From the sequence record MT446422.1: DNA of 64,000 nucleotides; one strand, given 5' to 3'. This DNA is from Escherichia virus TH57. The notes beneath the pieces were generated by a model. That model was not told where the DNA came from. It was given only the letters and a program-made list of their open reading frames with translations, and ran no database searches. Position numbers and translations under genes: made by a program. Every line of letters begins with the position of its first letter. Positions within the stretch are counted from its first letter, which is position 1. Below, piece after piece: positions 4,324 to 48,013 of this stretch.

Positions 4324-4346
4324 AAAGGGGTGTACAAGCCCCTTTG
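4324..4346 (+). terminator. hairpin with T-run
   Basis: AAAGGGG tgtacaa GCCCCTTT. Confidence 0.4.
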
Positions 4347-4359
4347 AACGGTGTATCAT
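4330..4359 (+). promoter_or_regulatory. early-type promoter cassette (GTGTACA, 18 nt, TATCAT) plus conserved leader
   Basis: -35-like GTGTACA inside GGGG..CCCC hairpin; downstream leader CCATCAACTACTGATGAGGA then ATG 4391. Confidence 0.45.
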
Positions 4360-4390
4360 TATCCCATCAACTACTGATGAGGAAAACAAA

Positions 4391-4573
4391 ATGGTTATTG
4401 AAGATAAAGAAATTAAACTTGACCATTATTATTCTGTAAATGGTTATCCTATACAAGTAACCAAAGTGACTGACCAAGATGTATGGTATCGTCCTTTGAA
4501 ATGGCCAGACGCTCCGTTGATGGTGTGCGACCGTAGCTTGTTCAATACAGTTGCGAAAGGACCTAAATTATGA
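4391..4573 (+). CDS. hypothetical protein (60 aa)
   Basis: ATG 4391 directly after conserved leader ATCAACTACTGATGAGGA downstream of promoter cassette. Confidence 0.35.
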   Translation: MVIEDKEIKLDHYYSVNGYPIQVTKVTDQDVWYRPLKWPDAPLMVCDRSLFNTVAKGPKL

Positions 4574-4824
4574 GCCTGAAATTACACTCAATGAAAAATA
4601 TCATTACCCTTAATCTGGATGATGAGCGCCTGATTTTTCTCACCGTCACTGATAAGAATATTGAAATTGCAAATGGTCCTAAGACTTATTGTTGCCCAGT
4701 GAAGAATTGGAAACATGTAACCTTTTTGACCCTGGGTGAACGCCTGAAAGACCTTAAGTTGGATTTGGATGTCAAAGATATCCAGTACATTAAAAATCTT
4801 ATTGGATACAAACTGTTGAGGTAA
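4570..4824 (+). CDS. hypothetical protein (84 aa)
   Basis: ORF with stop/start overlap. Confidence 0.4.
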   Translation: MSLKLHSMKNIITLNLDDERLIFLTVTDKNIEIANGPKTYCCPVKNWKHVTFLTLGERLKDLKLDLDVKDIQYIKNLIGYKLLR

Positions 4825-4826
4825 CT

Positions 4827-5120
4827 ATGGGTAAAACTATCCGTCGTAAAGAATTGTCTGTAAAAGATTTTTATTATTCCGGACGTCGTAAAGCACCAGA
4901 CGGTGTAAGTCAGGAACAAGTTGAAGAAAATATTTTCCGTTCAGACAAATGGAAGCGTATGCGTGGCGTTGATTCAGAAGTCAAGAATGAAATGAATCGT
5001 CAACTGCGCAAAGAAGTTCGCCAGTTGAAAAAAGATGTATACGTTGAGGATGATTTTGATTATAATACTTCTCACCGTGTTGCAAAGCGTAAATCAAATG
5101 AATGTTATCGTTACAGTTGA
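4827..5120 (+). CDS. hypothetical basic protein (97 aa)
   Basis: ORF rich in Lys/Arg. Confidence 0.4.
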   Translation: MGKTIRRKELSVKDFYYSGRRKAPDGVSQEQVEENIFRSDKWKRMRGVDSEVKNEMNRQLRKEVRQLKKDVYVEDDFDYNTSHRVAKRKSNECYRYS

Positions 5121-5259
5121 GGAAAATATGAATATCAAACGTATGCTTTTTAAACAAGGGTTATACACTTTAAATTCTGCTCCAAAAGGCGATACAACCA
5201 AGTGGTCAGTAAATGACTGGATTGAATTTATTGATGAAAACGGTAACTGGAAAATTTAA

Positions 5260-5457
5260 ATGAACCCTGAATCTAAATTATCACAGCGAATTGCTGAAGC
5301 TCGTCGCCAGTTTTTTGAAAATATGATAGCTCAAGGTATCGATGACGAAGTTTTTCTAAACTGGTTTTGGAATCACAAGTATTCAAGTTGTTCAGGAGCG
5401 ATATTCATATCAGCCGCAATGATGTATGAAGGCTGGAAAGCGGCTAAAGCGCAATAA
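5260..5457 (+). CDS. hypothetical protein (65 aa)
   Basis: ORF on early strand. Confidence 0.35.
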   Translation: MNPESKLSQRIAEARRQFFENMIAQGIDDEVFLNWFWNHKYSSCSGAIFISAAMMYEGWKAAKAQ

Positions 5458-5463
5458 AAACCA

Positions 5464-5486
5464 ACGGGGTCATGGTATAATGACCC
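5464..5486 (+). promoter_or_regulatory. stem-loop with embedded TATAAT (-10) upstream of ORF 5530
   Basis: GGGTCAT..TATAAT..ATGACCC inverted repeat. Confidence 0.35.
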
Positions 5487-5529
5487 TAGGATAATAAAAT
5501 TTTAATTTAATGAGACTGAGGAATATATC

Positions 5530-5856
5530 ATGACTGCATCTATCACTAACATCATCGCTAATTTCGCATTTACTAAAGTTAACACTCTGATGAAATCTGG
5601 TTTTGTTACTCCTGAGATTCTGGACCAGTGGGAAGGCGATGTACAGAAACTGATTATTGCAGAAGGTCAGACAATGGGTAAAGCGCGTATTCGTGAAAGC
5701 CTTGTCCAGTATATCCTGAATGAATTTGATGTAGTAGCGTTTGGTTTACCGCTTCTGCGTGAAAACAAAGAAGTTTCTGATAAAGCTATCAAGCGTATGA
5801 AGTCCCAACGCAAGAAGGGGTTTGTTGACCTGAAAATTGTTAAGGGTGCAAAATGA
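5530..5856 (+). CDS. hypothetical protein (108 aa)
   Basis: ORF preceded by stem-loop promoter element and GAGGAA RBS. Confidence 0.45.
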   Translation: MTASITNIIANFAFTKVNTLMKSGFVTPEILDQWEGDVQKLIIAEGQTMGKARIRESLVQYILNEFDVVAFGLPLLRENKEVSDKAIKRMKSQRKKGFVDLKIVKGAK

Positions 5857-6116
5857 TGTGCCCTGCTATTGAATTACCTGAAGGTGTTGCGGTAATAGTA
5901 TCCTACAAACATACGTATGCTAATGGAATTCGCCGAGCTCATAAAATTAGTCACGGTTACTATTTACAAAGGACTTTAAATTATTTCATTTCAATGGGAT
6001 ATGAATTCAGAATCTATCCTATGTGTACTAAAACCAAGTACACTAAAATCGATGCTTGGGAAGCTTGGGCGGAAGGCATGACATTAGACGAATTCCTGGA
6101 CTACTTAAATGATTAA
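5853..6116 (+). CDS. hypothetical protein (87 aa)
   Basis: ORF with stop/start overlap. Confidence 0.4.
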   Translation: MMCPAIELPEGVAVIVSYKHTYANGIRRAHKISHGYYLQRTLNYFISMGYEFRIYPMCTKTKYTKIDAWEAWAEGMTLDEFLDYLND

Positions 6117-6641: not shown

Positions 6642-6666
6642 TGCTTTGTATTAAGGATGATATAAT
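6642..6666 (+). promoter_or_regulatory. candidate middle promoter (MotA box plus -10) for gene 55
   Basis: aaTGCTTTg then 12 nt then TATAAT. Confidence 0.4.
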
Positions 6667-6689
6667 ATTCATATACTAAGTGAGGCGAT

Positions 6690-7464: not shown

Positions 7465-7465
7465 T

Positions 7466-8228: not shown

Positions 8229-8240
8229 TGCTTCCTTTTT
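8219..8240 (+). terminator. rho-independent terminator
   Basis: GGAAGC ctagt GCTTCC followed by TTTTT. Confidence 0.5.
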
Positions 8241-8262
8241 GCTTTATATTCGGGATGATAAA
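8240..8262 (+). promoter_or_regulatory. candidate middle promoter
   Basis: TGCTTTA then about 11 nt then GATAAA; weak -10. Confidence 0.3.
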
Positions 8263-8284
8263 ATGAACCAACTGAGGAGAACAT

Positions 8285-8428
8285 ATGGAATTATTTTTAG
8301 GATATGTTGTGTTATTCATGGCATTCTACACATTCACACGAGCTTGTTGGATAGGATTCTTTTCTACTCCTGACGGGTTCATTTCAATAATTTTATTTTG
8401 CACTGCGATAACGGCGCTTGGCTTATGA
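8285..8428 (+). CDS. small membrane protein (47 aa)
   Basis: GAGGAG RBS 6 nt upstream; hydrophobic; stop overlaps gene 47 start. Confidence 0.3.
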   Translation: MELFLGYVVLFMAFYTFTRACWIGFFSTPDGFISIILFCTAITALGL

Positions 8429-21946: not shown

Positions 21947-21958
21947 AATATTTTAAAA

Positions 21959-21978
21959 GGGGCTTACAGCCCCTTTTT
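21959..21978 (+). terminator. rho-independent terminator after gene 41
   Basis: GGGGC ttaca GCCCC followed by TTTTT. Confidence 0.55.
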
Positions 21979-21980
21979 CT

Positions 21981-21991
21981 TATGTTATAAT
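21981..21991 (+). promoter_or_regulatory. -10 element (TATAAT) with conserved leader upstream of ORF 22018
   Basis: TTATAATGACCCTATCAACTACTGGAGAATAAAATG, same leader family as the other cassettes. Confidence 0.4.
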
Positions 21992-22017
21992 GACCCTATC
22001 AACTACTGGAGAATAAA

Positions 22018-22335
22018 ATGAAAACTATTGATTGCAAAGCGGAATACAAAGTTTATTATCATGGCTCAAGCTCTAATGCTGGAATCCAAAATATGCTTTG
22101 CCCTCCTGATGCAACTGGTGTTCTGTCAGAAGTTGGGCGCAAGAAAAATTTAGGGCGTGTGTTTTTTACTGAAGATATTGGTTTGGCCCGTATCTATGCA
22201 GGAAGAGCAGCTCGCTCGTATGGAGGAGAACCCCGTCTTTATCGTGTGATTGCACCTGTTGACGTGGTTTGTTTAAATGATACTAAAGGTGCTACAGTTT
22301 ATCACGCTGACTGGGCCTTCTGTGAGGAAATCTAA
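22018..22335 (+). CDS. hypothetical protein (105 aa) with possible ADP-ribosyltransferase-like signature
   Basis: YHGSSS ... GRVFFTEDIGLARIYA ... CEE pattern is reminiscent of H-Y-E type ART cores; speculative. Confidence 0.45.
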   Translation: MKTIDCKAEYKVYYHGSSSNAGIQNMLCPPDATGVLSEVGRKKNLGRVFFTEDIGLARIYAGRAARSYGGEPRLYRVIAPVDVVCLNDTKGATVYHADWAFCEEI

Positions 22336-22548: not shown

Positions 22549-22890
22549 ATGGCTTTTAATCCAGAAGACCGCGTAAAAGTAACAATCAAAGTGAGTGCTG
22601 TTGGTGTACCATCTTTTGAACGTTCTAGCATGTTCCACCCAGCAGGTATTCACTGGTATGTCCAGAAGACTGCTGATAACTATAATGCACTGGTTGAAGC
22701 TTTTGTTGATGACAAGCTAATTCATAAAGTAGACATGCGTAAGGGTACTGCATTGCGTAATCTGATTTTGACCGTTGAAGCTCAACTGGTAAATGAAGAA
22801 ATCTGCCTTACTGATATTGAAGCAGCTCTTCATATTGCGCGTGCTGAATATTACAACTTGACTGGTTTTTCAGTTGAAGGCGAAAAATAA
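22549..22890 (+). CDS. hypothetical protein (113 aa)
   Basis: ORF; paralogous segment to 22336-22548. Confidence 0.45.
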   Translation: MAFNPEDRVKVTIKVSAVGVPSFERSSMFHPAGIHWYVQKTADNYNALVEAFVDDKLIHKVDMRKGTALRNLILTVEAQLVNEEICLTDIEAALHIARAEYYNLTGFSVEGEK

Positions 22891-22920
22891 GTGTACAACA
22901 AAGGGATAATGCTGTATATT
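22891..22920 (+). promoter_or_regulatory. early-type promoter cassette (GTGTACA, 18 nt, TATATT) with stem-loop
   Basis: AGGGATA..TATCCCT inverted repeat brackets the -10; leader CTATCAACTACTGAGGAGA then ATG 22949. Confidence 0.5.
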
Positions 22921-22948
22921 ATCCCTATCAACTACTGAGGAGATTGAA

Positions 22949-25676: not shown

Positions 25677-25784
25677 GAAGGGATTCCGGTAAAGTAACCG
25701 ATGATGGAATGGATATGTTCCATTGTGACCTGAGGTAAGTGTACCCCTTGTGATGCAGCGATAGGCATAACCAGTAAGTTCTAC

Positions 25785-25982
25785 CTATATAAGGCCGATT
25801 AATGCCAGTGAAACATCTACAACTGATTCGAGTGCGATGACTGGCAATATAACGCCATGTGCCAATGCAACAGGGGCAACAATGAAATTCCAGAGTAGAA
25901 CTAAACAGAGTATCGAAAGGACTAGAATCGTTCGCTTACGACTGCCTTTGATGGCTTGAATTAGACTAGATAGTTTTAGCAT
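25785..25982 (-). CDS. small membrane protein (65 aa) on the late strand
   Basis: Only minus-strand ORF inside the early block; AAGGAGGA RBS upstream of ATG 25982 (alternative TTG start at 26012); two hydrophobic helices. Confidence 0.4.
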   Translation of the reverse strand: MLKLSSLIQAIKGSRKRTILVLSILCLVLLWNFIVAPVALAHGVILPVIALESVVDVSLALIGLI

Positions 25983-26066
25983 ATATCCTCCTTTCTTGTA
26001 TTTATGCTTCAAACCAATATGATATAATTAACATACAAACAACATGAATTGATAAGGAAAAATATA

Positions 26067-27141: not shown

Positions 27142-27147
27142 TTATAG

Positions 27148-27170
27148 GGAACCTTCGGGTTCCCTTTTTG
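27148..27170 (+). terminator. rho-independent terminator after soc
   Basis: GGGAACC ttcg GGTTCCC followed by TTTTT. Confidence 0.6.
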
Positions 27171-27192
27171 CTTTTAATAGAAGCGGTATAAT
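27169..27192 (+). promoter_or_regulatory. candidate middle promoter (MotA box plus -10)
   Basis: tTGCTTTt then 11 nt then TATAAT, directly after soc terminator. Confidence 0.4.
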
Positions 27193-27217
27193 TATTTCAA
27201 TTACAGAGGAGAATACT

Positions 27218-28776: not shown

Positions 28777-29006
28777 ACTGGTTAACAAATATCCCCACAT
28801 CGGCACTGGATATCGACCGTAAACATGCTCATAAGGAAATTGAGCAACAAAAAATTAATCGTTTACAAAGGCTTAAGACTGAATCCGAGACAATTAAAGT
28901 CAAACGCCCGACAGAATCGAAAAGTTCTTACTCATCATATCAATCTCCGATTGGCATGGCCGTAGACATTGCAGTCTTTGGCACCCCACTTGGAGTATTT
29001 AAGTAG
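28773..29006 (+). CDS. hypothetical protein (77 aa)
   Basis: ATG overlaps upstream stop (ATGA). Confidence 0.35.
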   Translation: MNWLTNIPTSALDIDRKHAHKEIEQQKINRLQRLKTESETIKVKRPTESKSSYSSYQSPIGMAVDIAVFGTPLGVFK

Positions 29007-29062
29007 TTTACTTACTCCCCTCCTAATGACATAATGGTCTTTCTTACAACAGAGAGGCCATT

Positions 29063-29623
29063 ATGAACATCATCAAATCTGATACCGAACCCAACCAGTT
29101 AAAATTTAGTGAAATGGAGATAGCTTCATTATTTGAGTGCCGTACAGCAAAGGTTGATAAGACCTTGCATTCAAATGTCAACTCAATCATCAAGTCAAGG
29201 TTATCTATACCCGATACAGTCTTGTATCGTGGGGTAACCCAGCAAGAGATTGATTTATTAGATGAAGCAAAAGAATCAATGCAACCTTTTGAATTTGGAA
29301 GGATAACCTCCTTTACAGAAGACTATGGTATTGCCAGGGATTTTGCTGCAATGGAATATGTATCAAGGACTATCATCAGATTGAATCATACAAAAGCTTT
29401 TTGTTACCATGATGCGATGCGCAAAATTGCGCTTGATGTTCCACTGGAATTCTTCAATACTGCTTCTGGTTCCGAACAGGCGGCAACGTTAAGACGTGAA
29501 GAATATATGGACATGATTGATTCTGAGCTTGAATGGTTTGTTCCAGCTGACCAGAAATTCGTGATAGTTGATGCTGGATTTGTTGGTGATTATTATGTTC
29601 TTGACTGTGTACAAGAGCAATAA
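29063..29623 (+). CDS. ADP-ribosyltransferase, ModA/ModB family
   Basis: R-S-E type ART signature (LYRGV, ITSFTED, SELEWF); canonical position between soc and dda. Confidence 0.55.
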   Translation: MNIIKSDTEPNQLKFSEMEIASLFECRTAKVDKTLHSNVNSIIKSRLSIPDTVLYRGVTQQEIDLLDEAKESMQPFEFGRITSFTEDYGIARDFAAMEYVSRTIIRLNHTKAFCYHDAMRKIALDVPLEFFNTASGSEQAATLRREEYMDMIDSELEWFVPADQKFVIVDAGFVGDYYVLDCVQEQ

Positions 29624-29636
29624 GACACGTTAATAT
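29607..29636 (+). promoter_or_regulatory. early-type promoter cassette (GTGTACA, 18 nt, TAATAT)
   Basis: -35-like element lies in the 3' end of the upstream ART gene; leader CCTATCAACTACTGATGAGGA then ATG 29668. Confidence 0.45.
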
Positions 29637-29667
29637 GTTCCTATCAACTACTGATGAGGATAATAAA

Positions 29668-30282
29668 ATGCTGTACACTGATGATGTTTTGAATGGAATT
29701 ATTGACACTGCTGCTTCTAGTGAGTCTTTTCGTGACCAATGTCAAGCGGAGATTGATGCTCTTTATACAGATGAAGAGCAATCGGTACTCTGGCAGTGTA
29801 TGGAAAATAAACCCGACTTGATTCAAGAAGACTTAACCAGGATTATCCGCAACAATCTGAATACTGCACCGCCTGCGGCATTGTTCCGTGGTATATCAAA
29901 GAAAACTATGGAATACCTGGAAGATTTAAGATATGTTGGTGCGACAATTGAGTTCAACCGTGTAATGAGTTTTTCCAGGGACTGGCAGGTTGCAAGAAAT
30001 TTTGCATCATACAGTTTCTATGGCACAAGGAACATTTTCTGTATAAACAATGCACCATATGCGTATAACTATCAGGAAGCAATCTTCAAAATGATTTGCG
30101 GTGCTCCTCCTGAAGAGTTCAATGGTGCATATCCAGAAGCAACCAGGAAGTCAAACTTGCACCTGGTTAATGATGAAGATGAGTTTATGTTTCCCGCTGG
30201 GACTACGCTCCGCGTAGACTTGATTGAAACACACCCATTGAATAACCTGTATACTGTTTGGCATTTAACTGTTTTGAACTAA
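29668..30282 (+). CDS. ADP-ribosyltransferase, ModA/ModB family (second paralog)
   Basis: ART signature (LFRGI, MSFSRD, DEDEFMF); start at ATG 29668 after the conserved leader. Confidence 0.55.
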   Translation: MLYTDDVLNGIIDTAASSESFRDQCQAEIDALYTDEEQSVLWQCMENKPDLIQEDLTRIIRNNLNTAPPAALFRGISKKTMEYLEDLRYVGATIEFNRVMSFSRDWQVARNFASYSFYGTRNIFCINNAPYAYNYQEAIFKMICGAPPEEFNGAYPEATRKSNLHLVNDEDEFMFPAGTTLRVDLIETHPLNNLYTVWHLTVLN

Positions 30283-30341
30283 CCAAAGACCTTAGAACCA
30301 TTATACACAGTAAAAATAAAAGCGTTAAAGGTGAAAAAGTA

Positions 30342-30370
30342 GTGTACATAAAAGATGAATAGTATATAAT
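30342..30370 (+). promoter_or_regulatory. early-type promoter cassette (GTGTACA, 17 nt, TATAAT)
   Basis: Followed by GATTCCGTACTGAGTTA leader variant; upstream of ORF 30416. Confidence 0.5.
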
Positions 30371-30415
30371 GATTCCGTACTGAGTTATTCACGTCCGTAA
30401 GATGAGAAAAATATC

Positions 30416-33055: not shown

Positions 33056-33736
33056 ATTGATGCTATTATTGACTTTGAAACTCTAGGAAACGGCTCGAAG
33101 GGAGCCGTTATTGACCTGGCTCTGATTACATTCGAATCTGACCCTGCTATTGTGGAATCATTCGAAACTCTGGTTAATCGCGGCAAACGTATTAAGTTCA
33201 GCCTCGAATACCAAAAAGGTAAGCGGTTGTTCGACACAACAACCATGGGTTGGTGGAAAAAACAATCACCAGAAGCTCGTGTTAACCTGACTCCTTCTGC
33301 GCATGATGTTGATACTCTGACCGGTATCCAACAGGCGATTGACTATCTGAATGGCAATGGAATTAACAAATACGAAAGCCTTATGTGGTGCCGTGGAATG
33401 TCTTTTGACTTCCCGTTGTTTGTCGACCTTATCCGCGACCTACAGCGCAATGAGGGGATTCCTGAGCGTGAATTGAATACCTACGGTCTGGAGCCGGTTG
33501 TATTCTGGAATCAGCGAGATATCAGGACAGCCATCGAAGCCTTATCACTCGTCCGTAAGATGTGTGAAACCCCATTACCGAAAGGGACTTTAGATGGATT
33601 TGTGGCGCACGATTCGGTACATGACTGCGCGAAAGATATTTTGATGTTGAAGTACGCCCAACGCTATGCTCTTGGTTTGGATGAAGTTCCTTCCGAAGAA
33701 GATGCAGACCCGTTATCTTTACCGAAAAAACGATAA
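33053..33736 (+). CDS. dexA: exonuclease A DexA (DnaQ-like)
   Basis: 227 aa; exonuclease motif IDFETLG near N-terminus. Confidence 0.85.
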   Translation: MIDAIIDFETLGNGSKGAVIDLALITFESDPAIVESFETLVNRGKRIKFSLEYQKGKRLFDTTTMGWWKKQSPEARVNLTPSAHDVDTLTGIQQAIDYLNGNGINKYESLMWCRGMSFDFPLFVDLIRDLQRNEGIPERELNTYGLEPVVFWNQRDIRTAIEALSLVRKMCETPLPKGTLDGFVAHDSVHDCAKDILMLKYAQRYALGLDEVPSEEDADPLSLPKKR

Positions 33737-33743
33737 AAAGTAG

Positions 33744-33772
33744 TGTACAAGGCCAATAGAAAGAGACATAAT
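33744..33772 (+). promoter_or_regulatory. early-type promoter cassette (GTGTACA, 17 nt, CATAAT)
   Basis: Leader CATCAACTACTGATGAGGA then ATG 33804. Confidence 0.5.
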
Positions 33773-33803
33773 CATCTCATCAACTACTGATGAGGATAAC
33801 AAA

Positions 33804-34061
33804 ATGATTACTTCTTTTGAAATTGGCCAACAATATGAAATGTCTGCTCTTCAAGCTGCTGAAGCAGGTCTGACTAAAGCGTTTGAATGTGCATTTGCAA
33901 ATATTCGTGGTAAAATCTTTACTGTCAATAAAATTGCGGTATATGATAAAGAAACAGACATGAACAAAGGCATCTACCTGAACGTGTCAAATGCAAAAGG
34001 CCGTCGTGAAATTATGGTTGTACAACCTAATCAACTGGCGATGTTCAATAAGGTTGCATAA
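33804..34061 (+). CDS. hypothetical protein (85 aa)
   Basis: ORF after early promoter cassette. Confidence 0.45.
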   Translation: MITSFEIGQQYEMSALQAAEAGLTKAFECAFANIRGKIFTVNKIAVYDKETDMNKGIYLNVSNAKGRREIMVVQPNQLAMFNKVA

Positions 34062-34816
34062 TGAAACCAGAATTTATTGACTTTGATGTTGTAAGCACTT
34101 ATGTGTGTCCAATTAAACCATTAAAACTTGAGAAACAAAATATGACTATTGAAATTAACAAAACTTATCAACTGATTGAACCTATTATTCAAAACGCAGC
34201 TATGATTTCTGGGTATAATACTTTGACTGATGCTTTAGGTGAAGGTGAATTTGTTGTTGAAACTTTTGTAAAAAGTAACTGGTTTGATAAAGCATATATT
34301 TTGCATGCCCGTCGTCTGGATACTAATGAAGTGGAAAAAATTATGGTTTATGAAGCTGAGATTGAACTTTTCAAAGAAGTTGAAGAAACTCCTATCAAAG
34401 TTGGTAAAACATATCAGCTTATTGAAGATGGTAGTCAGTTTGATAATGCTATCGCACTGCATGCAGGCTGGCGTGTGCTGAAAGGTATTTTTGGCTTTGC
34501 TCCATTTACCGTTGAAACAGTTAAGTACCACAATCACTTAAATATCTTTGAATTTACTGCAATTAATGAATCAGGTGACAATCTTGAAGCTATCCTTTAT
34601 CCGCGTGAATCTGTACTGTTGGAAGAAGTTAACGAACTGGGTGACCCTATTGACTTGTTATGTAAACCAGTTCAAATCAAACGCCCATTTAACAGTTCCA
34701 TTTGTGGTTGGGTAACAGACCAGTGGATTGAAGATGGGGTTGAACTCCTGAACGTCGTCCATGCTGGTGAATTTACTGTTGTCCCACGTTCCATGGTTGT
34801 TCAAATTTTTAATTAA
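34061..34816 (+). CDS. hypothetical protein (251 aa) with internally repeated domain
   Basis: Two copies of a KTYQLIE.. domain; C-terminal segment WVTDQWIEDGVELLNVVHAGEFTVVPRS shared with ORF 34894. Confidence 0.5.
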   Translation: MKPEFIDFDVVSTYVCPIKPLKLEKQNMTIEINKTYQLIEPIIQNAAMISGYNTLTDALGEGEFVVETFVKSNWFDKAYILHARRLDTNEVEKIMVYEAEIELFKEVEETPIKVGKTYQLIEDGSQFDNAIALHAGWRVLKGIFGFAPFTVETVKYHNHLNIFEFTAINESGDNLEAILYPRESVLLEEVNELGDPIDLLCKPVQIKRPFNSSICGWVTDQWIEDGVELLNVVHAGEFTVVPRSMVVQIFN

Positions 34817-34821
34817 GTTTA

Positions 34822-34851
34822 GTGTACAAACTCTTGGGGTCGGAGTATAAT
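34822..34851 (+). promoter_or_regulatory. early-type promoter cassette (GTGTACA, 18 nt, TATAAT) with stem-loop
   Basis: TGGGGTC..TATAAT..GACCCCA stem-loop; upstream of ORF 34894. Confidence 0.5.
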
Positions 34852-34893
34852 GACCCCACTGGAGAATAAACTTATTAACCAAGAGAGAAAATT

Positions 34894-36196: not shown

Positions 36197-36457
36197 ATGA
36201 AATATATTAATCGTTCTATTGCCGCGCTGGTTTTGGCAGTTTCATTGACTGGTTGTACTGATGCAGATAATGCTGTTCGCGTATTAGATGCAAACGGCTA
36301 TGAGCAAATCCAAATCACCGGATATAACTGGTTTGGATGCTCTAAAGATGATTTCCAGCATACTGGTTTTACAGCAGTGGGTTCAACTGGTAAGAAAGTT
36401 GAAGGAACTGTTTGTTCTGGATTGTTGTTCAAGAATTCAACCATCCGATTTGAATAA
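36197..36457 (+). CDS. putative lipoprotein (86 aa)
   Basis: Signal peptide with lipobox LTGC; followed by hairpin terminator. Confidence 0.5.
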   Translation: MKYINRSIAALVLAVSLTGCTDADNAVRVLDANGYEQIQITGYNWFGCSKDDFQHTGFTAVGSTGKKVEGTVCSGLLFKNSTIRFE

Positions 36458-36474
36458 GGCCTTCGGGCCTTTTT
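36457..36474 (+). terminator. rho-independent terminator before gene 39
   Basis: AGGCC ttcg GGCCT followed by TTTTT. Confidence 0.55.
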
Positions 36475-36498
36475 GCTTTAAAATATGTGACTTATAAT
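36474..36498 (+). promoter_or_regulatory. candidate middle promoter (MotA box plus -10) for gene 39
   Basis: TGCTTTA then 12 nt then TATAAT directly after terminator. Confidence 0.45.
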
Positions 36499-36520
36499 AC
36501 CTCCATACACAAGAGGAAAG

Positions 36521-38546: not shown

Positions 38547-38551
38547 AATTT

Positions 38552-38575
38552 GGTCTCCTTCGGGAGACCTTTTTA
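38552..38575 (+). terminator. rho-independent terminator
   Basis: GGTCTCC ttcg GGAGACC followed by TTTTT. Confidence 0.6.
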
Positions 38576-38578
38576 TTA

Positions 38579-38607
38579 TGTACAAGCCACAAAAATTGTG
38601 TTAAGAT
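38579..38607 (+). promoter_or_regulatory. early-type promoter (TGTACA, 17 nt, TAAGAT)
   Basis: Immediately after terminator hairpin; upstream of ORF 38625. Confidence 0.35.
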
Positions 38608-38624
38608 GTCTTTGAGGTGAAAAT

Positions 38625-43392: not shown

Positions 43393-43439
43393 ACCAACCA
43401 TGTAATAATGTCCTCACACCAACAAATGAGGACATTATC

Positions 43440-43715: not shown

Positions 43716-43725
43716 TTAAAAAGTA

Positions 43726-43755
43726 GTGTACATCAGTATGGAGTCTATGTATAAT
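43726..43755 (+). promoter_or_regulatory. early-type promoter cassette (GTGTAC, 18 nt, TATAAT) with stem-loop
   Basis: ATGGAGTC..GATTCCAT imperfect inverted repeat around -10; leader CATACTGAGTTA. Confidence 0.5.
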
Positions 43756-43789
43756 GATTCCATACTGAGTTACCAAACTGGAGAATAAA

Positions 43790-43945
43790 ATGAAACCTGC
43801 TCAATATGCAATGACTTTATACCTTGAAGTTAATGGCGATATTACTGAATTTTTTAAATTAATGCAACAGCGTGGAAAAAGTTTTGCAGTTACTGAGCGT
43901 CAATTTTACGCTTGCCGTAAAAATACATACAATCGTTATGCATGA
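43790..43945 (+). CDS. hypothetical protein (51 aa)
   Basis: ATG directly after promoter cassette leader CTGGAGAATAAA. Confidence 0.3.
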   Translation: MKPAQYAMTLYLEVNGDITEFFKLMQQRGKSFAVTERQFYACRKNTYNRYA

Positions 43946-43955
43946 GGAAAATAAA

Positions 43956-44222: not shown

Positions 44223-44312
44223 GCAGCAAAACCTGGTGTCTTATCTGGATGCTGTGTATCCCAGTAATTTGCGTTTGTTTTAGTTTATTATTAATGAAAC
44301 TTGCATAAAAGA

Positions 44313-44341
44313 GTGTACATCTCCGGTGGTTGTAGTATAAT
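44313..44341 (+). promoter_or_regulatory. early-type promoter cassette (GTGTAC, 17 nt, TATAAT)
   Basis: Leader GAACCTATCAACTACTGGAGA then ATG. Confidence 0.5.
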
Positions 44342-44367
44342 GAACCTATCAACTACTGGAGATGATT

Positions 44368-44484: not shown

Positions 44485-44494
44485 GGATAATATT

Positions 44495-44943: not shown

Positions 44944-44958
44944 ATTGAGGAAATCATT

Positions 44959-45300
44959 ATGTCTAAATTATTTTTTGGTAATGCCAATGTTATGTTCTTT
45001 AAGAACCTTAGTCTCCAAGATGCAGCTTTATGTAATCAAGGGCAGATTCCAGGGTTACATTTAAAAACTGTAATGAGCACAGATTTTGTTTTTGTTCAAG
45101 ACCCTGATACAGGTTTTTACAGATTTATTAAATTCCGTATGTGCATGGACCCCGACTATCGCAATGCTTACTATGTAAGTTATGAAAATGTTATTAAAGA
45201 ATTACGTAATACCTATGGATATGCTTTGATAAACCTGAATAAGGTGTATAACGCTACTTGTTACACCCCCGAATTTATTTTAGAACAACTTCAAAAATAG
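44959..45300 (+). CDS. hypothetical protein (113 aa)
   Basis: ORF with GAGGAAA RBS. Confidence 0.45.
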   Translation: MSKLFFGNANVMFFKNLSLQDAALCNQGQIPGLHLKTVMSTDFVFVQDPDTGFYRFIKFRMCMDPDYRNAYYVSYENVIKELRNTYGYALINLNKVYNATCYTPEFILEQLQK

Positions 45301-45329
45301 TGTACAAACTCATGGGGTCAGAGTATAAT
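45300..45329 (+). promoter_or_regulatory. early-type promoter cassette (GTGTACA, 18 nt, TATAAT) with stem-loop, upstream of ndd
   Basis: TGGGGTC..TATAAT..GACCCCA; nearly identical to cassette at 34822. Confidence 0.5.
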
Positions 45330-45373
45330 GACCCCACTGGAGCACAAAACTTTAACTTACTGAGGAAATTAAT

Positions 45374-45823: not shown

Positions 45824-45824
45824 T

Positions 45825-45905
45825 ATGAGTAATTTCCATAATGAACATGTGATGCAATGGCATCGTCATAATCTGAAATTAACCGGCGTCTTTGGGCGCC
45901 CTTGA
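45825..45905 (+). CDS. stp: Stp peptide (26 aa; activator of host PrrC anticodon nuclease in T4)
   Basis: Peptide [26 protein letters not shown] closely matches recalled T4 Stp; immediately after ndd. Confidence 0.75.
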
Positions 45906-45912
45906 GGAAAAT

Positions 45913-46068
45913 ATGAATAAATTTGTTTATAGTGTAGCTTTTTTCTGTTGGTCATTTGTATTTGTTGGAACATTATTAACTGGAGAAACTTCAGTATTTT
46001 CACAGGCGATTGCTCAAGGTACCGTAGCGGTTTTATCACTATTTAAATTATTGGATAAAAATGATTAA
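45913..46068 (+). CDS. ac: small membrane protein (51 aa), ac position
   Basis: ATG with GAGGAAAA RBS; hydrophobic; between stp and 52 as T4 ac; by position and size. Confidence 0.45.
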   Translation: MNKFVYSVAFFCWSFVFVGTLLTGETSVFSQAIAQGTVAVLSLFKLLDKND

Positions 46069-46201
46069 GAAAATCTTGGGCTACTCATTAGCCCTTGCTA
46101 CCTTATTGGTGGCGCTGTATTATGGAGTTGTATTTGCATTAGTGCAGGTTGTGCTTTTTATTTCTGATGCTATAATGGCAGTACATTCGTTAATCTGGTA
46201 A
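46061..46201 (+). CDS. small membrane protein (46 aa)
   Basis: ATG overlapping upstream gene end; hydrophobic. Confidence 0.3.
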   Translation: MIKKILGYSLALATLLVALYYGVVFALVQVVLFISDAIMAVHSLIW

Positions 46202-46209
46202 GGTGATAT

Positions 46210-47589
46210 ATGTCTGACGTTTTAAGTATGATGTCCAAACAGTTCAGTGATTCCATGGGGTCCCTTAACCCACGCAGTCTAAAAGACATTATTGATGTGG
46301 AAGCATTGTCATATGCTATCTACACTGTGGAAGGTCGTGCCATCCCAAACATGATTGATGGTTTTAAACCAGTTCACAGATTTGTTATGGCGAGAGCATT
46401 AGACCTGGCTCGTGGCGATAAGAATAAATTCCATAAGGTTGCCTCCATTGCAGGTGGCGTAGCTGATTATGGTTATCACCATGGCGAAGCATCAGCGGAA
46501 GAAGCAACTTCTGGTCTGGTCGCAACATATAAAAATGAATACCCCATGTTTGATGGGCAAGGCAACTTTGGTTCCAGAATGGTGCCAGAAGCATCATCAG
46601 CTCGTTATGTATTCGCAAGGGTTTCAAAGAACTTTTATAACTTGTTTAAGGATACAGAATATGCTCCGGTCCATCCTGATGAAGAACATAAGCCTCCTGC
46701 TTTTTATCTTCCTGTTATTCCTACTGTATTACTTAACGCCACTTCTGGGATTGCTGTTGGCTTCGCTACTGATATTCTTCCTCATTCGTTCCAGGACGTC
46801 AAGGAAGCTGTTAAAGCTATCGTGGAAGGTCGTGAGCCGGTTGCTCCGAAAGTAAAATATCCAGAATTCCGTGGTGAAGTTGTTGAGCTGGAAGAGCCTG
46901 GTAAGTATGAGCTTCATGGCACGTACAAAATGACTTCCAGGACTCAAATGGAAATTACTGAAATCCCGGTCCAATGGAACCTGGAAAAGTATACAAGTAA
47001 AATCCTGGACCCACTGGAAGAGAAAGGTTTTATCACCTGGAAAGATAACTGTGGCGAGCATGGTTTTGGGTTTAAGATTAAATTCCGTAAGGAATACAAG
47101 CTGGATGGCACTGAAGAAGAAAATCATGAGAAAATCATGAAAGACTTTGGTCTGATTGAGAAGCTCTCCCAGAACTTAACTGTACTTAATCACAAAGGCA
47201 AATTGGCTGAATACACCAACACGCTTGACCTGATTCGCGATTTCGTTGATGTCCGTAAGACTTATGTCCAAGTGCGAATTGACAGTAAGATTAAAGAAAC
47301 TGAAGCCGCGTTTAAACTGGCCCGAGCAAAAGTCTTCTTTATTAAAGAAGTGATTGATGGTAAGGTTGTTATCCAGGGGAAACCTCGTAAGAAGTTGATT
47401 GAGGAGCTCCAGGCGAGTGAAATATATGGCGATTATGCAGAGAAGTTAGTGGCGATGAACATCTACCATATGACCTCTGATGAAGCCAAGAAGCTTGCAG
47501 ACGAAGCAAAGGCTAAGAAAGCCGAGCATGAGTACTGGAAGACAACTGATGTTAAAACTGAATACCTTAATGATTTGGAGGCTCTATGA
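46210..47589 (+). CDS. 52: DNA topoisomerase II medium subunit gp52 (GyrA-like)
   Basis: 459 aa; GyrA-type breakage-reunion N-terminal region. Confidence 0.92.
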   Translation: MSDVLSMMSKQFSDSMGSLNPRSLKDIIDVEALSYAIYTVEGRAIPNMIDGFKPVHRFVMARALDLARGDKNKFHKVASIAGGVADYGYHHGEASAEEATSGLVATYKNEYPMFDGQGNFGSRMVPEASSARYVFARVSKNFYNLFKDTEYAPVHPDEEHKPPAFYLPVIPTVLLNATSGIAVGFATDILPHSFQDVKEAVKAIVEGREPVAPKVKYPEFRGEVVELEEPGKYELHGTYKMTSRTQMEITEIPVQWNLEKYTSKILDPLEEKGFITWKDNCGEHGFGFKIKFRKEYKLDGTEEENHEKIMKDFGLIEKLSQNLTVLNHKGKLAEYTNTLDLIRDFVDVRKTYVQVRIDSKIKETEAAFKLARAKVFFIKEVIDGKVVIQGKPRKKLIEELQASEIYGDYAEKLVAMNIYHMTSDEAKKLADEAKAKKAEHEYWKTTDVKTEYLNDLEAL

Positions 47590-47684
47590 GTTTTGGAGTT
47601 GAGTTTGCATTGCTTTGTATTTTCGCGGCAATCGCGGGTGTGATTGTTGGTATGTTTATTGGTAATAAGATAGATAAAGACTAG
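47586..47684 (+). CDS. small membrane peptide (32 aa)
   Basis: ATG overlaps gp52 stop (ATGA); followed by terminator. Confidence 0.3.
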   Translation: MSFGVEFALLCIFAAIAGVIVGMFIGNKIDKD

Positions 47685-47706
47685 GGCCCTTCGGGGTCCT
47701 TTTTTA
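47684..47706 (+). terminator. rho-independent terminator after gene 52 region
   Basis: GGGCCC ttcg GGGTCC (imperfect) followed by TTTTTT. Confidence 0.5.
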
Positions 47707-47718
47707 TTTTAAAAAGTA

Positions 47719-47748
47719 GTGTACAAGTCCCTTGACCCGATGCATAAT
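47719..47748 (+). promoter_or_regulatory. early-type promoter cassette (GTGTACA, 18 nt, CATAAT)
   Basis: Follows terminator; leader GATTCCATACTGAGTTA; upstream of ORF 47798 and motA. Confidence 0.5.
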
Positions 47749-47797
47749 GATTCCATACTGAGTTACACACTGAATCATAAAAATTTTGGAGAATAAA

Positions 47798-48013
47798 ATG
47801 TTTACTGCACAACAGAATGAAGGTCAAGAATACATCAACGCCAAATTCAAATCTAACAAAGAAGCTTGTTATTACTACTTTGACATGTTCAAACTGGCAA
47901 ACTCTAAAGAAGAACGTAAACAAGCGATTGATGTTATTGTTTCTACTTCCCATATGAAACGTACTGTGGTACAATCATATGCATCAAATTATATGAAATC
48001 TATTAAGGGATAA
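47798..48013 (+). CDS. hypothetical protein (71 aa)
   Basis: ATG directly after promoter cassette leader TGGAGAATAAA. Confidence 0.4.
   Translation: MFTAQQNEGQEYINAKFKSNKEACYYYFDMFKLANSKEERKQAIDVIVSTSHMKRTVVQSYASNYMKSIKG

Follow-up and report, generated by a model that had tools for sequence, protein, structure and literature searches.

Similar short segments recur in front of genes along the genome of Escherichia virus TH57, raising the question of whether they are promoters of one kind, mobile recombination modules or something else. The window analyzed, 64,000 nucleotides of record MT446422.1, comes from a Gaprivervirus (a T4-like coliphage) whose nearest relative is TH54. An earlier note had described at least eleven cassettes sharing GTGTACA, TATAAT, a stem-loop and a conserved leader, and had likened them to the promoter-early-stem-loop (PeSL) elements proposed to mediate modular gene shuffling in T4-type phages.

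A family of cassettes on one strand

All 12 sites quoted in that note were present where it had placed them. A profile search built from the copies, as the note had suggested, recovered 14 members with E-values from 3e-14 to 7e-3, including two that had been overlooked (at 17961 and 50768). The family in the window comprises these 14 copies, each of about 75 nt, together with 2 weaker relatives. Every copy lies on the + strand and immediately precedes a start codon, within an intergenic gap or bordering on one, with a 5' UTR of 20-43 nt (14 of 14 copies). Exact matches to GTGTACA-N16-19-TATAAT numbered five, all on the + strand, compared with 0.04 expected from shuffles. In 11 related genomes the profile matched 10-17 times per ~50 kb and never on the - strand, and conservation of the cassettes extends from these relatives to one Dhakavirus and to T4.

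A coincidence, due to chance or to the base composition of AT-rich phage DNA, would fit one result: generic sigma-70 hexamer pairs were not enriched in window DNA relative to shuffled sequence (50 vs 53, 32 vs 31 and 48 vs 53). What carries the argument for promoters is the pattern specific to this family, together with orthology, and not the generic consensus. Coincidence is already refuted by the excess of the exact pattern, the profile hits and the conservation in related genomes; the complete strand and position bias also argues against it, and we regard its probability as negligible.

The elements of a cassette are ordered as an A-tract (TAAAAAGTA) that lies directly 5' of the -35 and resembles an UP element, the -35 GTGTACA, a spacer of 16-17 nt (rather than the 17-18 nt first reported), a -10 fitting TAnnnT, a C-rich stretch, a probable +1 A and a short leader. 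The proposed sharing of GTGTACA and TATAAT held for the five exact matches, but most -10 elements deviate: TATAAT is exact in only 5 full copies, the other forms being TATCAT, TATGAT, TATATT, TAATAT, CATAAT (twice) and TACAAT, and the copy at 17961 has GTTTACA as its -35. The hexamer TGTACA itself agrees with TTGACA at only 4 of 6 positions. Two copies had been taken for leader-only variants. The one at 5464 is indeed without a -35, though its -10 is extended (TGn). The one at 21981 is no leader-only variant: it reads CTTACA-N17-TATAAT, its -10 is extended by TG, and the terminator of gene 41 holds its -35 in the loop. The sites are as follows, where E is the profile E-value and z refers to folding energy.

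4324-4390, +: cassette before a 55.6-like ORF; E 3e-14; -35 GTGTACA 4330-4336 in the loop of hairpin AAAGGGG/CCCCTTT 4324-4345 (z -2.3); -10 TATCAT 4354-4359; leader ATCAACTACTGATGAGGA. The T4 nrdH/55.6 junction carries a GTTTACA promoter in the same place.
5458-5529, +: cassette before a 55.2-like ORF; E 7e-3; z -2.5; no recognizable -35; extended -10 TGGTATAAT ending 5481; hairpin GGGGTC/GACCCT 5466-5487 around the -10, then directly RegB-type site GGATAATAAAA 5489-5499. At the corresponding junction, Dhakavirus CLB_P2 carries a complete GTTTACA copy.
17959-18027, +: cassette between gene 43 and imm; E 9e-10; z -2.1; -35 GTTTACA 17961-17967; spacer hairpin CGGCA/TGCCG 17969-17984; -10 TATGAT 17985-17990; leader ATCAACTGATGA. 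T4 P-imm.1 occupies this junction too; its leader is CTATCAACTACTGATACGG.
21947-22017, +: terminator and promoter composite after gene 41, before an ORF044c-like gene and dmd; z -3.2; terminator AAAAGGGGC-TTACA-GCCCCTTTT 21955-21977 with -35 CTTACA in its loop; extended -10 TGTTATAAT ending 21991; leader ATCAACTACTGGAGAATAAA; RegB-type site 22008-22018; a multi-allelic indel hot spot.
22880-22948, +: cassette before sp (spackle); -35 GTGTACA 22891-22897; z -3.0; hairpin GGGATAAT/ATTATCCC 22903-22925 overlapping -10 TATATT 22915-22920; leader ATCAACTACTGAGGAG; bounds a variable ORF on its right. T4 P-sp shares this junction; its leader is AAACTACTGAGGAG.
29003-29062, +: probable extra early promoter before modB, of the plain T4 type, GTTTACT (29007)-N17-CATAAT, outside the family profile. 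T4 P-modB shares this junction.
29596-29667, +: cassette before modA; -35 GTGTACA 29607-29613 within the modB 3' end; -10 TAATAT ending 29636; leader ATCAACTACTGATGAGGATAATAAA; RegB-type site 29658-29668. T4 has no counterpart, because modB and modA overlap there.
30330-30415, +: cassette before srd; A-tract AAAAAGTA; -35 GTGTACA 30342-30348; 16-nt spacer; -10 TATAAT ending 30370; class B leader (GTACTGAGTTA); hairpin absent (z -0.25). T4 P-srd shares this junction, and both have leader CCGTCCGTAAGATG.
33733-33803, +: cassette after dexA, before ORF013c and motB.1; -35 GTGTACA 33743-33749; -10 CATAAT ending 33772; leader ATCAACTACTGATGAGGATAACAAA; RegB-type site 33794-33804. T4 P-motB.2 occupies this junction too; its leader is CTACTGAGGATAATAAAATG.
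34811-34893, +: cassette before motB; -35 GTGTACA 34822-34828; hairpin GGGGTC 34836-34841 / GACCCC 34852-34857 with -10 TATAAT 34846-34851 in its loop, then ACTGGAGAATAAAC. Orthologue of T4 P-motB (GTTTACAAACTCTTGGGACCAGAGTATAATGGTCCCGTGGAG), a hairpin promoter in both phages.
38547-38624, +: weak relative before the ORF upstream of rIIA.1; E 3, not significant; terminator GGTCTCCTTCGGGAGACC 38552-38569, then ATGTACA (38579)-N17-TAAGAT.
43716-43789, +: cassette after denB; -35 GTGTACA 43726-43732; z -3.1; hairpin ATGGAGTC/GATTCCAT 43738-43763 around the -10 (ending 43755); leader class B, then ACTGGAGAATAAA; RegB-type site 43780-43790; left boundary of variable ORF 43790-43945. T4 P-ndd.6 is at the matching junction.
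44300-44367, +: cassette before an ndd.4-like 38-aa membrane ORF; -35 GTGTACA 44313-44319; 16-nt spacer; -10 TATAAT ending 44341; leader ATCAACTACTGGAGATGATT. Orthologue of T4 P-ndd.4, with both leader and ORF N-terminus conserved.
45289-45373, +: cassette before ndd; -35 GTGTACA 45300-45306; z -3.3; hairpin GGGGTC 45314-45319 / GACCCC 45330-45335 around the -10 (ending 45329), then ACTGGAGC. T4 has only a hairpin and then TTGGAG at this junction, with no promoter.
47683-47797, +: terminator (47683-47700) then cassette, before a motA.1-like ORF and motA; -35 GTGTACA 47719-47725; -10 CATAAT ending 47748; leader class B; RegB-type Shine-Dalgarno GGAGAATAAAA 47788-47798. T4 has a terminator and P-motA nearby, with leader CTATCAACTACTGATACAG.
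50757-50846, +: cassette before asiA; E 2e-7; -35 GTGTACA 50768-50774 within the 3' end of the upstream ORF; -10 TACAAT ending 50797; leader TTACTGAATAA. T4 P-asiA is at the same junction.

Correspondence with T4 early promoters

Downstream of most cassettes are orthologues of named T4 early genes, including imm, the dmd operon, sp, modA, srd, motB, ndd, motA and asiA, which contradicts the earlier statement that cassettes bound almost all groups of unknown ORFs. In addition, the unknown ORFs of the a-gt.x, mrh/modA.x, 39.x/goF/cef and arn.x clusters are either without a cassette or begin at a middle promoter instead. Among the 15 clearer promoters, 11-12 occupy the same gene junction as a T4 GTTTAC-type promoter; the T4 promoters of the form GTTTAC[AT]-N17-TAnnnT precede imm.1, dmd, sp, modB, srd, motB.2, motB, ndd.6, ndd.4, motA, asiA and 55.6. 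The T4 counterpart of the phage -35 GTGTACA is GTTTACA. Several T4 copies share leader CTATCAACTACTGA or the hairpin around the -10, and further leaders are common to both phages, for example those listed above for T4 P-imm.1 and P-motB.2. Given these shared junctions, leaders and hairpins, the cassettes are inherited T4-type early promoters, and most have kept their position since the split from T4.

The cassettes also match published early-promoter logos of T4-like phages, in which GTTTAC occupies -36 to -31, positions -40 to -44 are rich in A and positions -3 to -1 are C (PMC1524935); the early promoters of T4 itself have been assigned to the UP/-35/TGn/-10 type (PMC2988021). PeSLs have been described as a sigma-70-like promoter with an AT-rich upstream region, a variably placed stem-loop, a Shine-Dalgarno sequence and ATG (PMC2839356, PMC4122927). 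The cassettes have the full T4-type early-promoter anatomy, and the likeness to PeSLs drawn in the earlier note is supported.

We put at roughly 85% the probability that the cassettes are immediate-early promoters, the Gaprivervirus form of T4 Pe, read by unmodified host sigma-70 RNA polymerase. By analogy with T4, they would be active early, with transcription probably starting at the A seven nucleotides past the -10, after the C-rich stretch; the A-tract directly upstream of the -35 is probably UP-element-like. The sites might instead be MotA/AsiA-dependent middle promoters or gp55 late promoters, as a sigma-70-type -10 is common to cassettes and middle promoters, and true middle promoters do lie in neighboring gaps at 6642, 8229, 27142 and 36458. 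The latter carry a TGCTT box ~12 nt upstream of the -10, the published MotA box being TGCTTtA centered at -30 (PMC2988021, PMC1524935). However, the MotA box is found in no cassette, which has GTGTACA at -35 instead; the late motif TATAAATA is likewise in none; and the cassettes precede T4 early-gene orthologues, motA and asiA included. A middle or late identity is therefore barely credible.

The conserved leader was confirmed: the leader classes are real and specific to promoter-adjacent genes, with ATCAACTACTGA or ATACTGAGTTA as the 5' part. GGAKRAYARAA, the consensus for strong RegB/S1 cleavage sites (PMC3014915), occurred seven times, always on the + strand, compared with 0.77 expected, and six of the seven occurrences were in cassette leaders. 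These six leaders carry predicted cleavage sites, and a RegB homologue is encoded by TH54 and by VR25. In the immediate-early promoter model, the 3' part of the 20-43 nt leader would be a Shine-Dalgarno sequence doubling as the RegB/S1 consensus match, at which the phage endoribonuclease RegB would switch off early mRNAs.

The hairpin around the -10

The -10 had been described as often inside a stem-loop. A stem-loop encloses or overlaps it in 5 of 14 copies (5464, 22891, 34822, 43726 and 45300), but three further copies (4330, 17961 and 21981) have a hairpin elsewhere in the cassette and others have none. Folding energy reached z <= -2 in 8 of 14 cassettes, and five or six of the 14 had no significant hairpin by this measure. 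Only 2 of 12 T4 counterparts have a hairpin. Since it is missing from some cassettes and from most T4 counterparts, the hairpin is not an obligatory part. A retrieval in which the arms of the 6-bp hairpin around the -10 were masked as N yielded 28 distinct sequences, and 100% of their 168 cells pair. Changes were compensatory (on both sides) at 4 of 6 pairs, and the observed score was reached in 0 of 500 shuffles.

The inverted repeat could in principle be an operator, bound by a dimeric phage or host protein that shuts the promoter off, with no RNA or single-strand structure involved. Its arms are symmetric about the -10, so placed that a protein bound to them would obstruct RNA polymerase, and shut-off of T4 early promoters is reported as not fully understood (PMC3014915). 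However, arm sequence is free to vary while complementarity is kept (at least 8 different arm pairs, in addition to the compensatory positions), and 11 G-U wobble cells, valid on the sense strand only, are tolerated; such a pattern is what base pairing leaves, and not a protein site recognized by its sequence. Hairpin position also differs among cassettes. An operator is thus very unlikely.

As part of an immediate-early promoter, the hairpin would lie upstream of the start site and so be absent from the cassette's own transcripts, with only read-through RNA carrying it. There it most likely marks a transcription-unit boundary, by attenuation or as a protective 3' end. No U-tract follows the hairpins that enclose the -10, which are therefore not canonical intrinsic terminators. 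In the class with the -10 in the loop, GGA(G/U) occurs within 2-3 nt after the hairpin.

Gene shuffling at cassettes

The cassettes could also be PeSLs in a stronger sense, mobile recombination modules whose main part in evolution is to move, insert or delete the ORFs they flank, for example via mini-circles, and that resemble one another through mobility and not common promoter function. Modular shuffling was borne out at three multi-allelic hot spots with breakpoints inside cassette sequence, which are convincing PeSL-type hot spots. After gene 41, at least five alleles were found, including tandem modules of 315-394 bp, each a cassette plus an ORF; in the window the cassette is a chimera with its junction (relative to MN01) in the AAAGGGG stem, and TH54 has a replacement allele with GTTTAC-type promoters and its right-hand junction in the leader. 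Three alleles exist before sp, and at 43.79 kb an ORF has been gained or lost at GA(A)AATAAAATG microhomology. In PSD2001, ectopic conversion has occurred between two cassettes that lie 26 kb from each other and share an identical stretch of 52 nt.

Shuffling was nevertheless not enriched near cassettes overall. In the synteny comparison that the earlier note had proposed, made with 11 Gaprivervirus genomes, presence-variable genes made up 5 of 26 cassette-adjacent genes and 15 of 76 others (odds ratio 0.97, P = 1). Among 44 distinct indel or replacement events, 10 touched a cassette, clustered at only 3 sites, and 34 had a cassette at neither breakpoint. The cassette-flanked ORF after gene 41 is confined to Gaprivervirus and always to that locus (22 records), and the promoters at T4's own junctions point to positional stability across genera. 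Mobility as the primary role is thus unlikely. Because they have about 50-75 nt of sequence in common, the cassettes do occasionally act as crossover points for deletion, insertion or ectopic conversion. Shuffling at cassettes is occasional and not the main signature here.

Precedent for PeSL-type shuffling exists in phi1/RB49, T4/PST and KVP40/nt-1 (PMC2839356, PMC4122927). The cassettes themselves are of an already known kind, the Gaprivervirus form of the familiar early promoters of T4.

Predicted promoter cassettes of the early region

The family of repeated early-promoter cassettes that an earlier note had described in this DNA is real and was correctly recognised there in outline. All 12 of the sites quoted in that note were present. 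The exact pattern GTGTACA-N16-19-TATAAT was matched five times in the window, always on the + strand, against 0.04 matches expected. The motif search that the note had proposed, run with a profile built from the copies, returned 14 members with E values of 3e-14 to 7e-3, and 14/14 lay on the + strand. These comprised the copies already listed and two that had been overlooked, 17961 (gene 43/imm) and 50768 (before asiA). There were also two weaker relatives, 38579 and 29007, the latter a plain T4-type promoter (GTTTACT-N17-CATAAT) before modB. Two sites had been described as leader-only. One of them, 21981, is actually a complete promoter, with CTTACA 17 nt before TGTTATAAT; the terminator of gene 41 carries this -35 in its loop. 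The other, 5464, does lack a -35, yet has a TGn extended -10. The copies and the parts of the cassette are as follows.

Cassette copies and anatomy (copies named by approximate position; parts in 5' to 3' order)
Copies, + strand: 4330, 5464, 17961, 21981, 22891, 29607, 30342, 33744, 34822, 43726, 44313, 45300, 47719, 50768
Weaker relatives: 29007, 38579
Part 1: A-tract, typically TAAAAAGTA
Part 2: -35 GTGTACA, then a spacer of 16-17 nt
Part 3: -10 TAnnnT, then a pyrimidine-rich, mostly C-rich stretch
Part 4: presumed +1, an A seven nt after the -10
Part 5: leader of one of three types, ATCAACTACTGA(T)GAGGA, ATACTGAGTTAC or ACTGGAG

Every copy is located within, or borders on, the intergenic gap that leads to a start codon (ATG), with an inferred 5' UTR of 20-43 nt and an upstream stop codon usually 0-11 nt before the -35. 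Among the 14 copies the -35 heptamer is GTGTACA in 11, GTTTACA in one and CTTACA in one, and one copy has none; the spacer is 16-17 nt wherever a -35 exists. The sequence (T)AAAAAGTA or a near variant stands immediately 5' of the -35 in at least eight copies. The -10 takes the forms TATAAT, TATCAT, TATGAT, TATATT, TAATAT, CATAAT and TACAAT, and 13 of the 14 have YCC(Y) ahead of the presumed +1 A. The leader motifs are almost confined to the first gene after the promoter and do not mark other genes. When the profile was applied to the matching 44-50 kb regions of eleven other Gaprivervirus genomes, 10-17 copies were found on the + strand of each and none on the - strand.

Matches to generic sigma-70 hexamers were no commoner in the window than in shuffled DNA, a result that neither supports nor refutes the family; the signal is the extended family pattern, not the two hexamers. 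No Rfam family matched the window, which was searched in full with the gathering thresholds. Readings of the cassettes as middle promoters, late promoters, protein operators or chance matches were rejected.

By megablast, the window belongs to the genus Gaprivervirus (Straboviridae, Tevenvirinae), with Escherichia virus TH54 as the nearest record (97-98% identity), followed by UPEC07, VR20, VR7, VR25, VR26 and SP18. Its + strand corresponds to the early-gene direction of T4. Along this strand the order is nrdD/nrdG, the 55.x cluster, 55, 47, 46, 45, 44, 62, regA, 43, imm, uvsX, 40, 41, dmd and sp; then 61, 56, soc, mrh/modA.x, modB, modA, srd, dda, dexA, motB.1, motB and cef; and finally goF, 39, rIIA, rIIB, denB, ndd.x, ndd, 52, motA, arn.x and asiA. 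Tail-fibre genes follow asiA on the - strand.

Several stretches of this region vary among relatives or depart from T4. The genes for the anaerobic ribonucleotide reductase, nrdD and nrdG (approximately 2.4 kb, window 1105-3514), are missing from MN01, TH44 and VR7, and neither breakpoint carries a cassette. Between gene 46 and 45.2 (window 11580-11626), PSD2001 and MN01 have a 773-nt insertion, not found in the window, that holds a homing endonuclease gene on the opposite strand. Upstream of gene 43 is a 302-nt gap (14942-15243) with a terminator followed by TTTTGTAGTATAAT; five relatives lack approximately 200 nt of this gap, and a small ORF (ORF053c) is annotated there in VR7. The 390 nt between genes 61 and 56 (25677-26066) hold no + strand gene; a 75-aa ORF lies on the - strand at 25785-26012 and is annotated in some relatives as a hypothetical or holin-family protein. 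The T4 counterpart of this neighbourhood contains dam and oriA.

Conserved positions, altered -35 and leaders

T4-like early promoters have been described in several genera, with GTTTAC at -36 to -31, an A-rich segment at -40 to -44 and C at -3 to -1 (Nolan et al. 2006, PMC1524935), and the T4 early promoters (Pe) are UP/-35/TGn/-10 promoters (Hinton 2010, PMC2988021). Since the T4 GenBank record contains no promoter features, T4 promoters were located by pattern in the matching parts of the T4 genome. The pattern GTTTAC[AT]-N17-TAnnnT was found before imm.1, dmd, sp, modB, srd, motB.2, motB, ndd.6, ndd.4, motA, asiA and 55.6, and 11-12 of the 15 clearer promoters of the window share a gene junction with a T4 GTTTAC promoter. 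Leaders could also be compared, each T4 promoter being named for the gene that it precedes. The leader CTATCAACTACTGATAC(G/A)G is present at P-imm.1, P-ndd.6 and P-motA, CTACTGAGGATAATAAAATG at P-motB.2 and AAACTACTGAGGAG at P-sp. That of P-srd, CCGTCCGTAAGATG, is common to the srd cassette of the window, and P-motB, GTTTACAAACTCTTGGGACCAGAGTATAATGGTCCCGTGGAG, is a clear orthologue of the motB cassette, hairpin included. All the sequence-level features of a T4-type early promoter are found in the cassettes, namely the -35 heptamer, the -10 with its spacing, the UP-like and C-rich parts, and the location. Because they occupy the same junctions as in T4 and resemble the T4 promoters beyond the hexamers, the cassettes are very probably inherited early promoters that have kept their positions since the split of Tequatrovirus and Gaprivervirus. 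No promoter analysis of Gaprivervirus was found in the searchable literature.

All twelve Gaprivervirus genomes carry GTGTACA in 8-12 copies each and GTTTACA in only 1-3, whereas the -35 of T4 and of Dhakavirus CLB_P2 is GTTTACA. The Gaprivervirus heptamer is that of T4 with one base changed, T to G at -34. Given this one-base difference in the -35, the cassettes appear to be a genus-specific variant of the T4-type early promoter. The bases just upstream of the -35 differ as well, being AAAAAGTA in the window and AAAAAGTT or TTTCACAAAAC in T4. Both changes are seen throughout the genus as a joint shift of the promoter consensus, which reads AAAAAGTT-GTTTACA in T4 and Dhakavirus versus AAAAAGTA-GTGTACA in Gaprivervirus; the TGTACA core is a perfect 6-bp palindrome and matches TTGACA at only 4/6 positions. 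The shift could stem from gene conversion, or the promoters may have co-evolved with a factor of the phage. One possibility is that the lineage-wide TGTACA arose in step with a phage protein by which RNA polymerase is modified or assisted.

Cleavage by RegB occurs at GGAG/U, for the most part where translation of early genes is initiated, and the consensus of strong RegB/S1 cleavage sites is GG*AGRAYARAA (Uzan and Miller 2010, PMC3014915). The pattern GGAKRAYARAA was matched seven times in the window, 7/7 on the + strand, compared with 0.77 expected. Six of the seven matches fell in cassette leaders (5489, 22008, 29658, 33794, 43780 and 47788); as at T4 RegB/S1 sites, GGA(G/U)RAYARAA in these six leaders coincides with, or is close to, the Shine-Dalgarno sequence of the gene that opens an early unit. 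The lineage also resembles T4 in having a regB homologue: tblastn with T4 RegB as query detected one in TH54 and VR25 (59.7% identical residues across 97% of the protein, E 1e-49), annotated as regB in VR25, the gene lying outside the window. Thus, the 3' half of the leader is best explained as a Shine-Dalgarno sequence and predicted RegB target, a reading in keeping with the speed at which early mRNAs of T4 are known to be inactivated. In contrast to the T4 sites, the GGA(G/U) of copies 5464, 34822 and 45300 is not the Shine-Dalgarno sequence and lies 1-3 nt after the hairpin, at approximately +3 to +7 on transcripts that start at the cassette.

The 5' half of the leader (ATCAACTACTGA or ATACTGAGTTA) is kept between genera at orthologous sites. 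A scan of IMG/VR with the 14-mer leader CTATCAACTACTGA gave at least approximately 120 loci and is not informative on how widespread the leader is; among the approximately 120 matches listed, three had a clear T4-like promoter context and a fourth is a likely chance match.

The hairpin at the -10

Folding was assessed for the 50 nt ending just after the -10 of each of the 14 cassettes. A folding z of -2 or below was obtained in 8/14. In five copies (5464, 22891, 34822, 43726 and 45300) the hairpin surrounds the -10 or overlaps it, in two (4330 and 21981) it surrounds the -35, and in one (17961) it lies in the spacer; copy 47719 has a canonical terminator immediately upstream. By this test a significant hairpin was absent or weak in about 5-6 of the 14 copies. 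A strong hairpin is present in only 2/12 of the T4 counterparts; therefore, the hairpin is an optional part of the cassette, commoner in Gaprivervirus.

A scan of IMG/VR with the full class-C pattern recovered seven loci on four contigs, too few for a covariation test. In the scan that replaced it, both arms of the class-C pattern were set to N, and 28 distinct hairpin-type sequences were obtained from Gaprivervirus, Dhakavirus, T4-type and other contigs. All 168 cells of the 6-bp stem were paired (100%), with changes on both sides at 4/6 pairs, and the observed covariation was reached by 0/500 shuffles. When the 3' partners were displaced by one to three columns, pairing fell to 44-60%. The arm pairs include GGGGTC/GACCCC, GGGACC/GGTCCC, GGGAGC/GCTCCC, GAGAGC/GCTCTC, GAGGAC/GTCCTC and GAGAGA/TCTCTC, and covariation of the -10 hairpin spans at least three genera. 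The wobble cells, eleven in number, read G-U in the sense direction, whereas the opposite strand would have A-C mismatches there; since G-U is valid on the sense strand alone, these cells point to pairing in the sense-strand RNA. GGA(G/U) follows the hairpin within 2-3 nt in 28/28 sequences, across a linker that varies.

As the 3' arm ends immediately before the presumed start site, the hairpin can be present only in read-through RNA of the upstream unit. A role for the -10 hairpins as canonical intrinsic terminators was rejected, as they have no U-tract; the only hairpins with the appearance of canonical intrinsic terminators are 21955-21977 and 47683-47700. We infer that the -10 hairpin may act at transcript boundaries, through attenuation or as a processed and protected 3' end, possibly coupled to RegB.

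At the ndd.1/ndd junction of T4 (166040-166115) there is no early promoter, and a hairpin (GGCCG...CGGCC) is followed by TTGGAGTAGAAAA. It sits where the window has cassette 45300, with its hairpin plus GGAG, and resembles half a PeSL (promoter-early stem-loop) element. Hairpin and TTGGAG are kept at this T4 junction, where no promoter is left.

For the class with the -10 in the loop, the 6-bp hairpin and the GGA(G/U) within 2-3 nt of it may constitute an RNA element, in which case the cassette would combine a promoter with a module for processing transcript boundaries. We regard this as a tentative proposal with roughly one chance in five of being correct. Because the start site is just after the hairpin, the element would be borne only by RNA reading through from the upstream unit. 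On such RNA it could direct cleavage by RegB, leaving the upstream message with a protective 3' hairpin. The cassette's own transcripts would carry only a GGAG near the 5' end, a possible trigger of decay. The RNA-element proposal is consistent with the covariation, with the GGA(G/U) in 28/28 sequences and with the hairpin and GGAG without a promoter at T4 ndd.

A related arrangement is known at T4 e, soc, 49 and I-TevI, where a promoter lies inside an RNA hairpin and read-through and promoter-initiated transcripts differ in structure (PMC3014915). At those genes the internal promoter is late, and the Shine-Dalgarno sequence or AUG is itself locked up in the hairpin (PMC3014915). The cassettes are similar in that the start site is downstream of the 5' arm and read-through RNA alone forms the hairpin. 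They differ in that the promoter is early and the hairpin ends at -1, excluding the Shine-Dalgarno sequence.

On the - strand, the cassette hairpins at 4324-4345, 5467-5486 and 22902-22926 are followed by a T-run, owing to the A-tract 5' of the hairpin on the + strand, and were scored as terminators by the scan. These terminator-like hairpins might stop antisense (late) transcription from entering the early region.

Gene turnover and relation to known elements

The window was aligned with the eleven other Gaprivervirus genomes and every unaligned block of at least 60 nt was listed, giving 113 events that reduced to 44 distinct ones. A cassette stood at the breakpoint in 10/44 events, which are confined to three sites: one following gene 41, one preceding sp and one at 43.79 kb. 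No cassette was present in the remaining 34/44; they include the loss of nrdD/nrdG, the insertion of a homing endonuclease after gene 46 and numerous indels of single ORFs where stop and start codons overlap. In the synteny comparison that the earlier note had proposed, 5/26 cassette-adjacent genes were absent from at least one relative versus 15/76 other genes (odds ratio 0.97, P = 1). Thus, the suggestion that cassettes mediate gene shuffling holds for three junction sites of the PeSL type and fails as a general association with gene turnover.

The site after gene 41 has at least five alleles. MN01 reads AAAAAAGGGG-TGTACAA-GCCCC ... ORF ... AAAGGGG-CTTACA-GCCCCTTTTT, and relative to it the window has a chimera, AAAAGGGG-CTTACA-GCCCC, with the junction within the stem. 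PSD2001, P896 and TH41 have two tandem cassette-plus-ORF modules, and chain analysis grouped TH44 with this allele. TH54 (its DNA, L002, 20647-21217) has a different ORF with GTTTACA and GTTTACT promoters of the T4/Dhakavirus type, and the right-hand junction of the replacement lies in the common leader CCTATCAACTACTGGAGAATAAAATG; this arrangement suggests a recent import from another genus. The cassette-flanked ORF after gene 41 was found only in Gaprivervirus and always at the gene 41 locus; therefore, it gives no sign of movement between loci. At 43.79 kb, gain or loss of the ORF 43790-43945 took place at a microhomology, GA(A)AATAAAATG. In PSD2001, two cassettes separated by 26 kb share a stretch of 52 nt without a difference, spacer included, and their orthologues elsewhere differ, which indicates ectopic conversion.

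PeSL cassettes, proposed mediators of modular gene shuffling in T4-type phages, were described in phi1/RB49 (Arbiol et al. 2010, PMC2839356) and in T4/PST and KVP40/nt-1 (Comeau et al. 2014, PMC4122927). Their promoter consensus is TTGACA in RB49 and TTTACW in T4/PST, and their stem-loops fall into five positional subclasses (PMC2839356, PMC4122927). The structural resemblance to PeSL elements claimed in the earlier note was borne out, a promoter with an AT-rich upstream region lying between the upstream stop and the downstream Shine-Dalgarno sequence and ATG. Like PeSL elements, the window cassettes run from a stop codon through an AT-rich region, a sigma-70-like promoter and, in part of the copies, a stem-loop to a Shine-Dalgarno sequence and ATG. 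Where present, the stem-loop shows the positional range of PeSL elements, covering the -35 or the -10 or lying in the spacer or upstream, and tandem cassette-plus-ORF modules and chimeric cassettes at deletion junctions occur. Unlike PeSL elements, they have the consensus GTGTACA and stems that are not simple G-run/C-run, and most precede conserved orthologues of named T4 early genes rather than ORFans. The stem-loop is missing from about 5-6/14 copies: z is -2 or below in 8/14, one more (47719) has an upstream terminator, and in five the structure is absent or weak. There was no statistical association with indels in the window, nor any preferential association with ORFans or indels in the comparison with the eleven relatives. 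The cassettes appear to fit the structural definition of PeSL elements without the association with gene turnover behind that name, approximately one-third of them having no stem-loop.

Terminator and middle-promoter composites are also present. At 27146-27200, 36456-36505, 6642-6689 and 8229-8290, the U-tract of an intrinsic terminator runs straight into a MotA box, as in GGGAACCTTCGGGTTCCC-TTTTTGCTTTT...TATAAT and GGCCTTCGGGCC-TTTTTGCTTTAA...TATAAT. These composites resemble the published 'PmSL' elements described for nt-1. At 36459, six relatives have an insertion of approximately 395 nt exactly at the terminator/MotA-box element.

To the earlier description this analysis adds positional orthology with T4, leaders with the RegB consensus, covariation of the -10 hairpin, the lineage-wide GTGTACA and the null result for a general association with indels. 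It provides a predicted promoter map for the early region of a Gaprivervirus; some phages of this genus were isolated for use in therapy and biocontrol. The idea of PeSL elements as mobile cassettes is qualified: in the genomes compared, the cassettes are crossover points at a few hot spots and do not generally predict gene turnover. The covariation and the RegB-consensus leaders yield hypotheses, cheap to test, on how early mRNAs are bounded and inactivated.

Among the closest known systems is the T4 early promoter. Besides the -35 and the bases just upstream of it, two differences were found: the modA promoter of the window has no T4 counterpart, and promoter hairpins are commoner in the window (8/14 with z of -2 or below, versus 2/12 in T4). 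The two sets are alike in their A-rich UP-like element, phage-type -35 heptamer, spacer of 17 +/- 1 nt, TAnnnT -10 and C-rich -3 to -1, in having the orientation of the early genes, and in common leaders (CTATCAACTACTGA...). They are alike also in the junctions that they occupy, at imm, dmd, sp, modB, srd, motB.2/motB.1, motB, ndd.6, ndd.4, motA, asiA and 55.6. The T4 early-promoter family, with its transcribed leader and, at one -10, its hairpin, is thus kept by position across genera.
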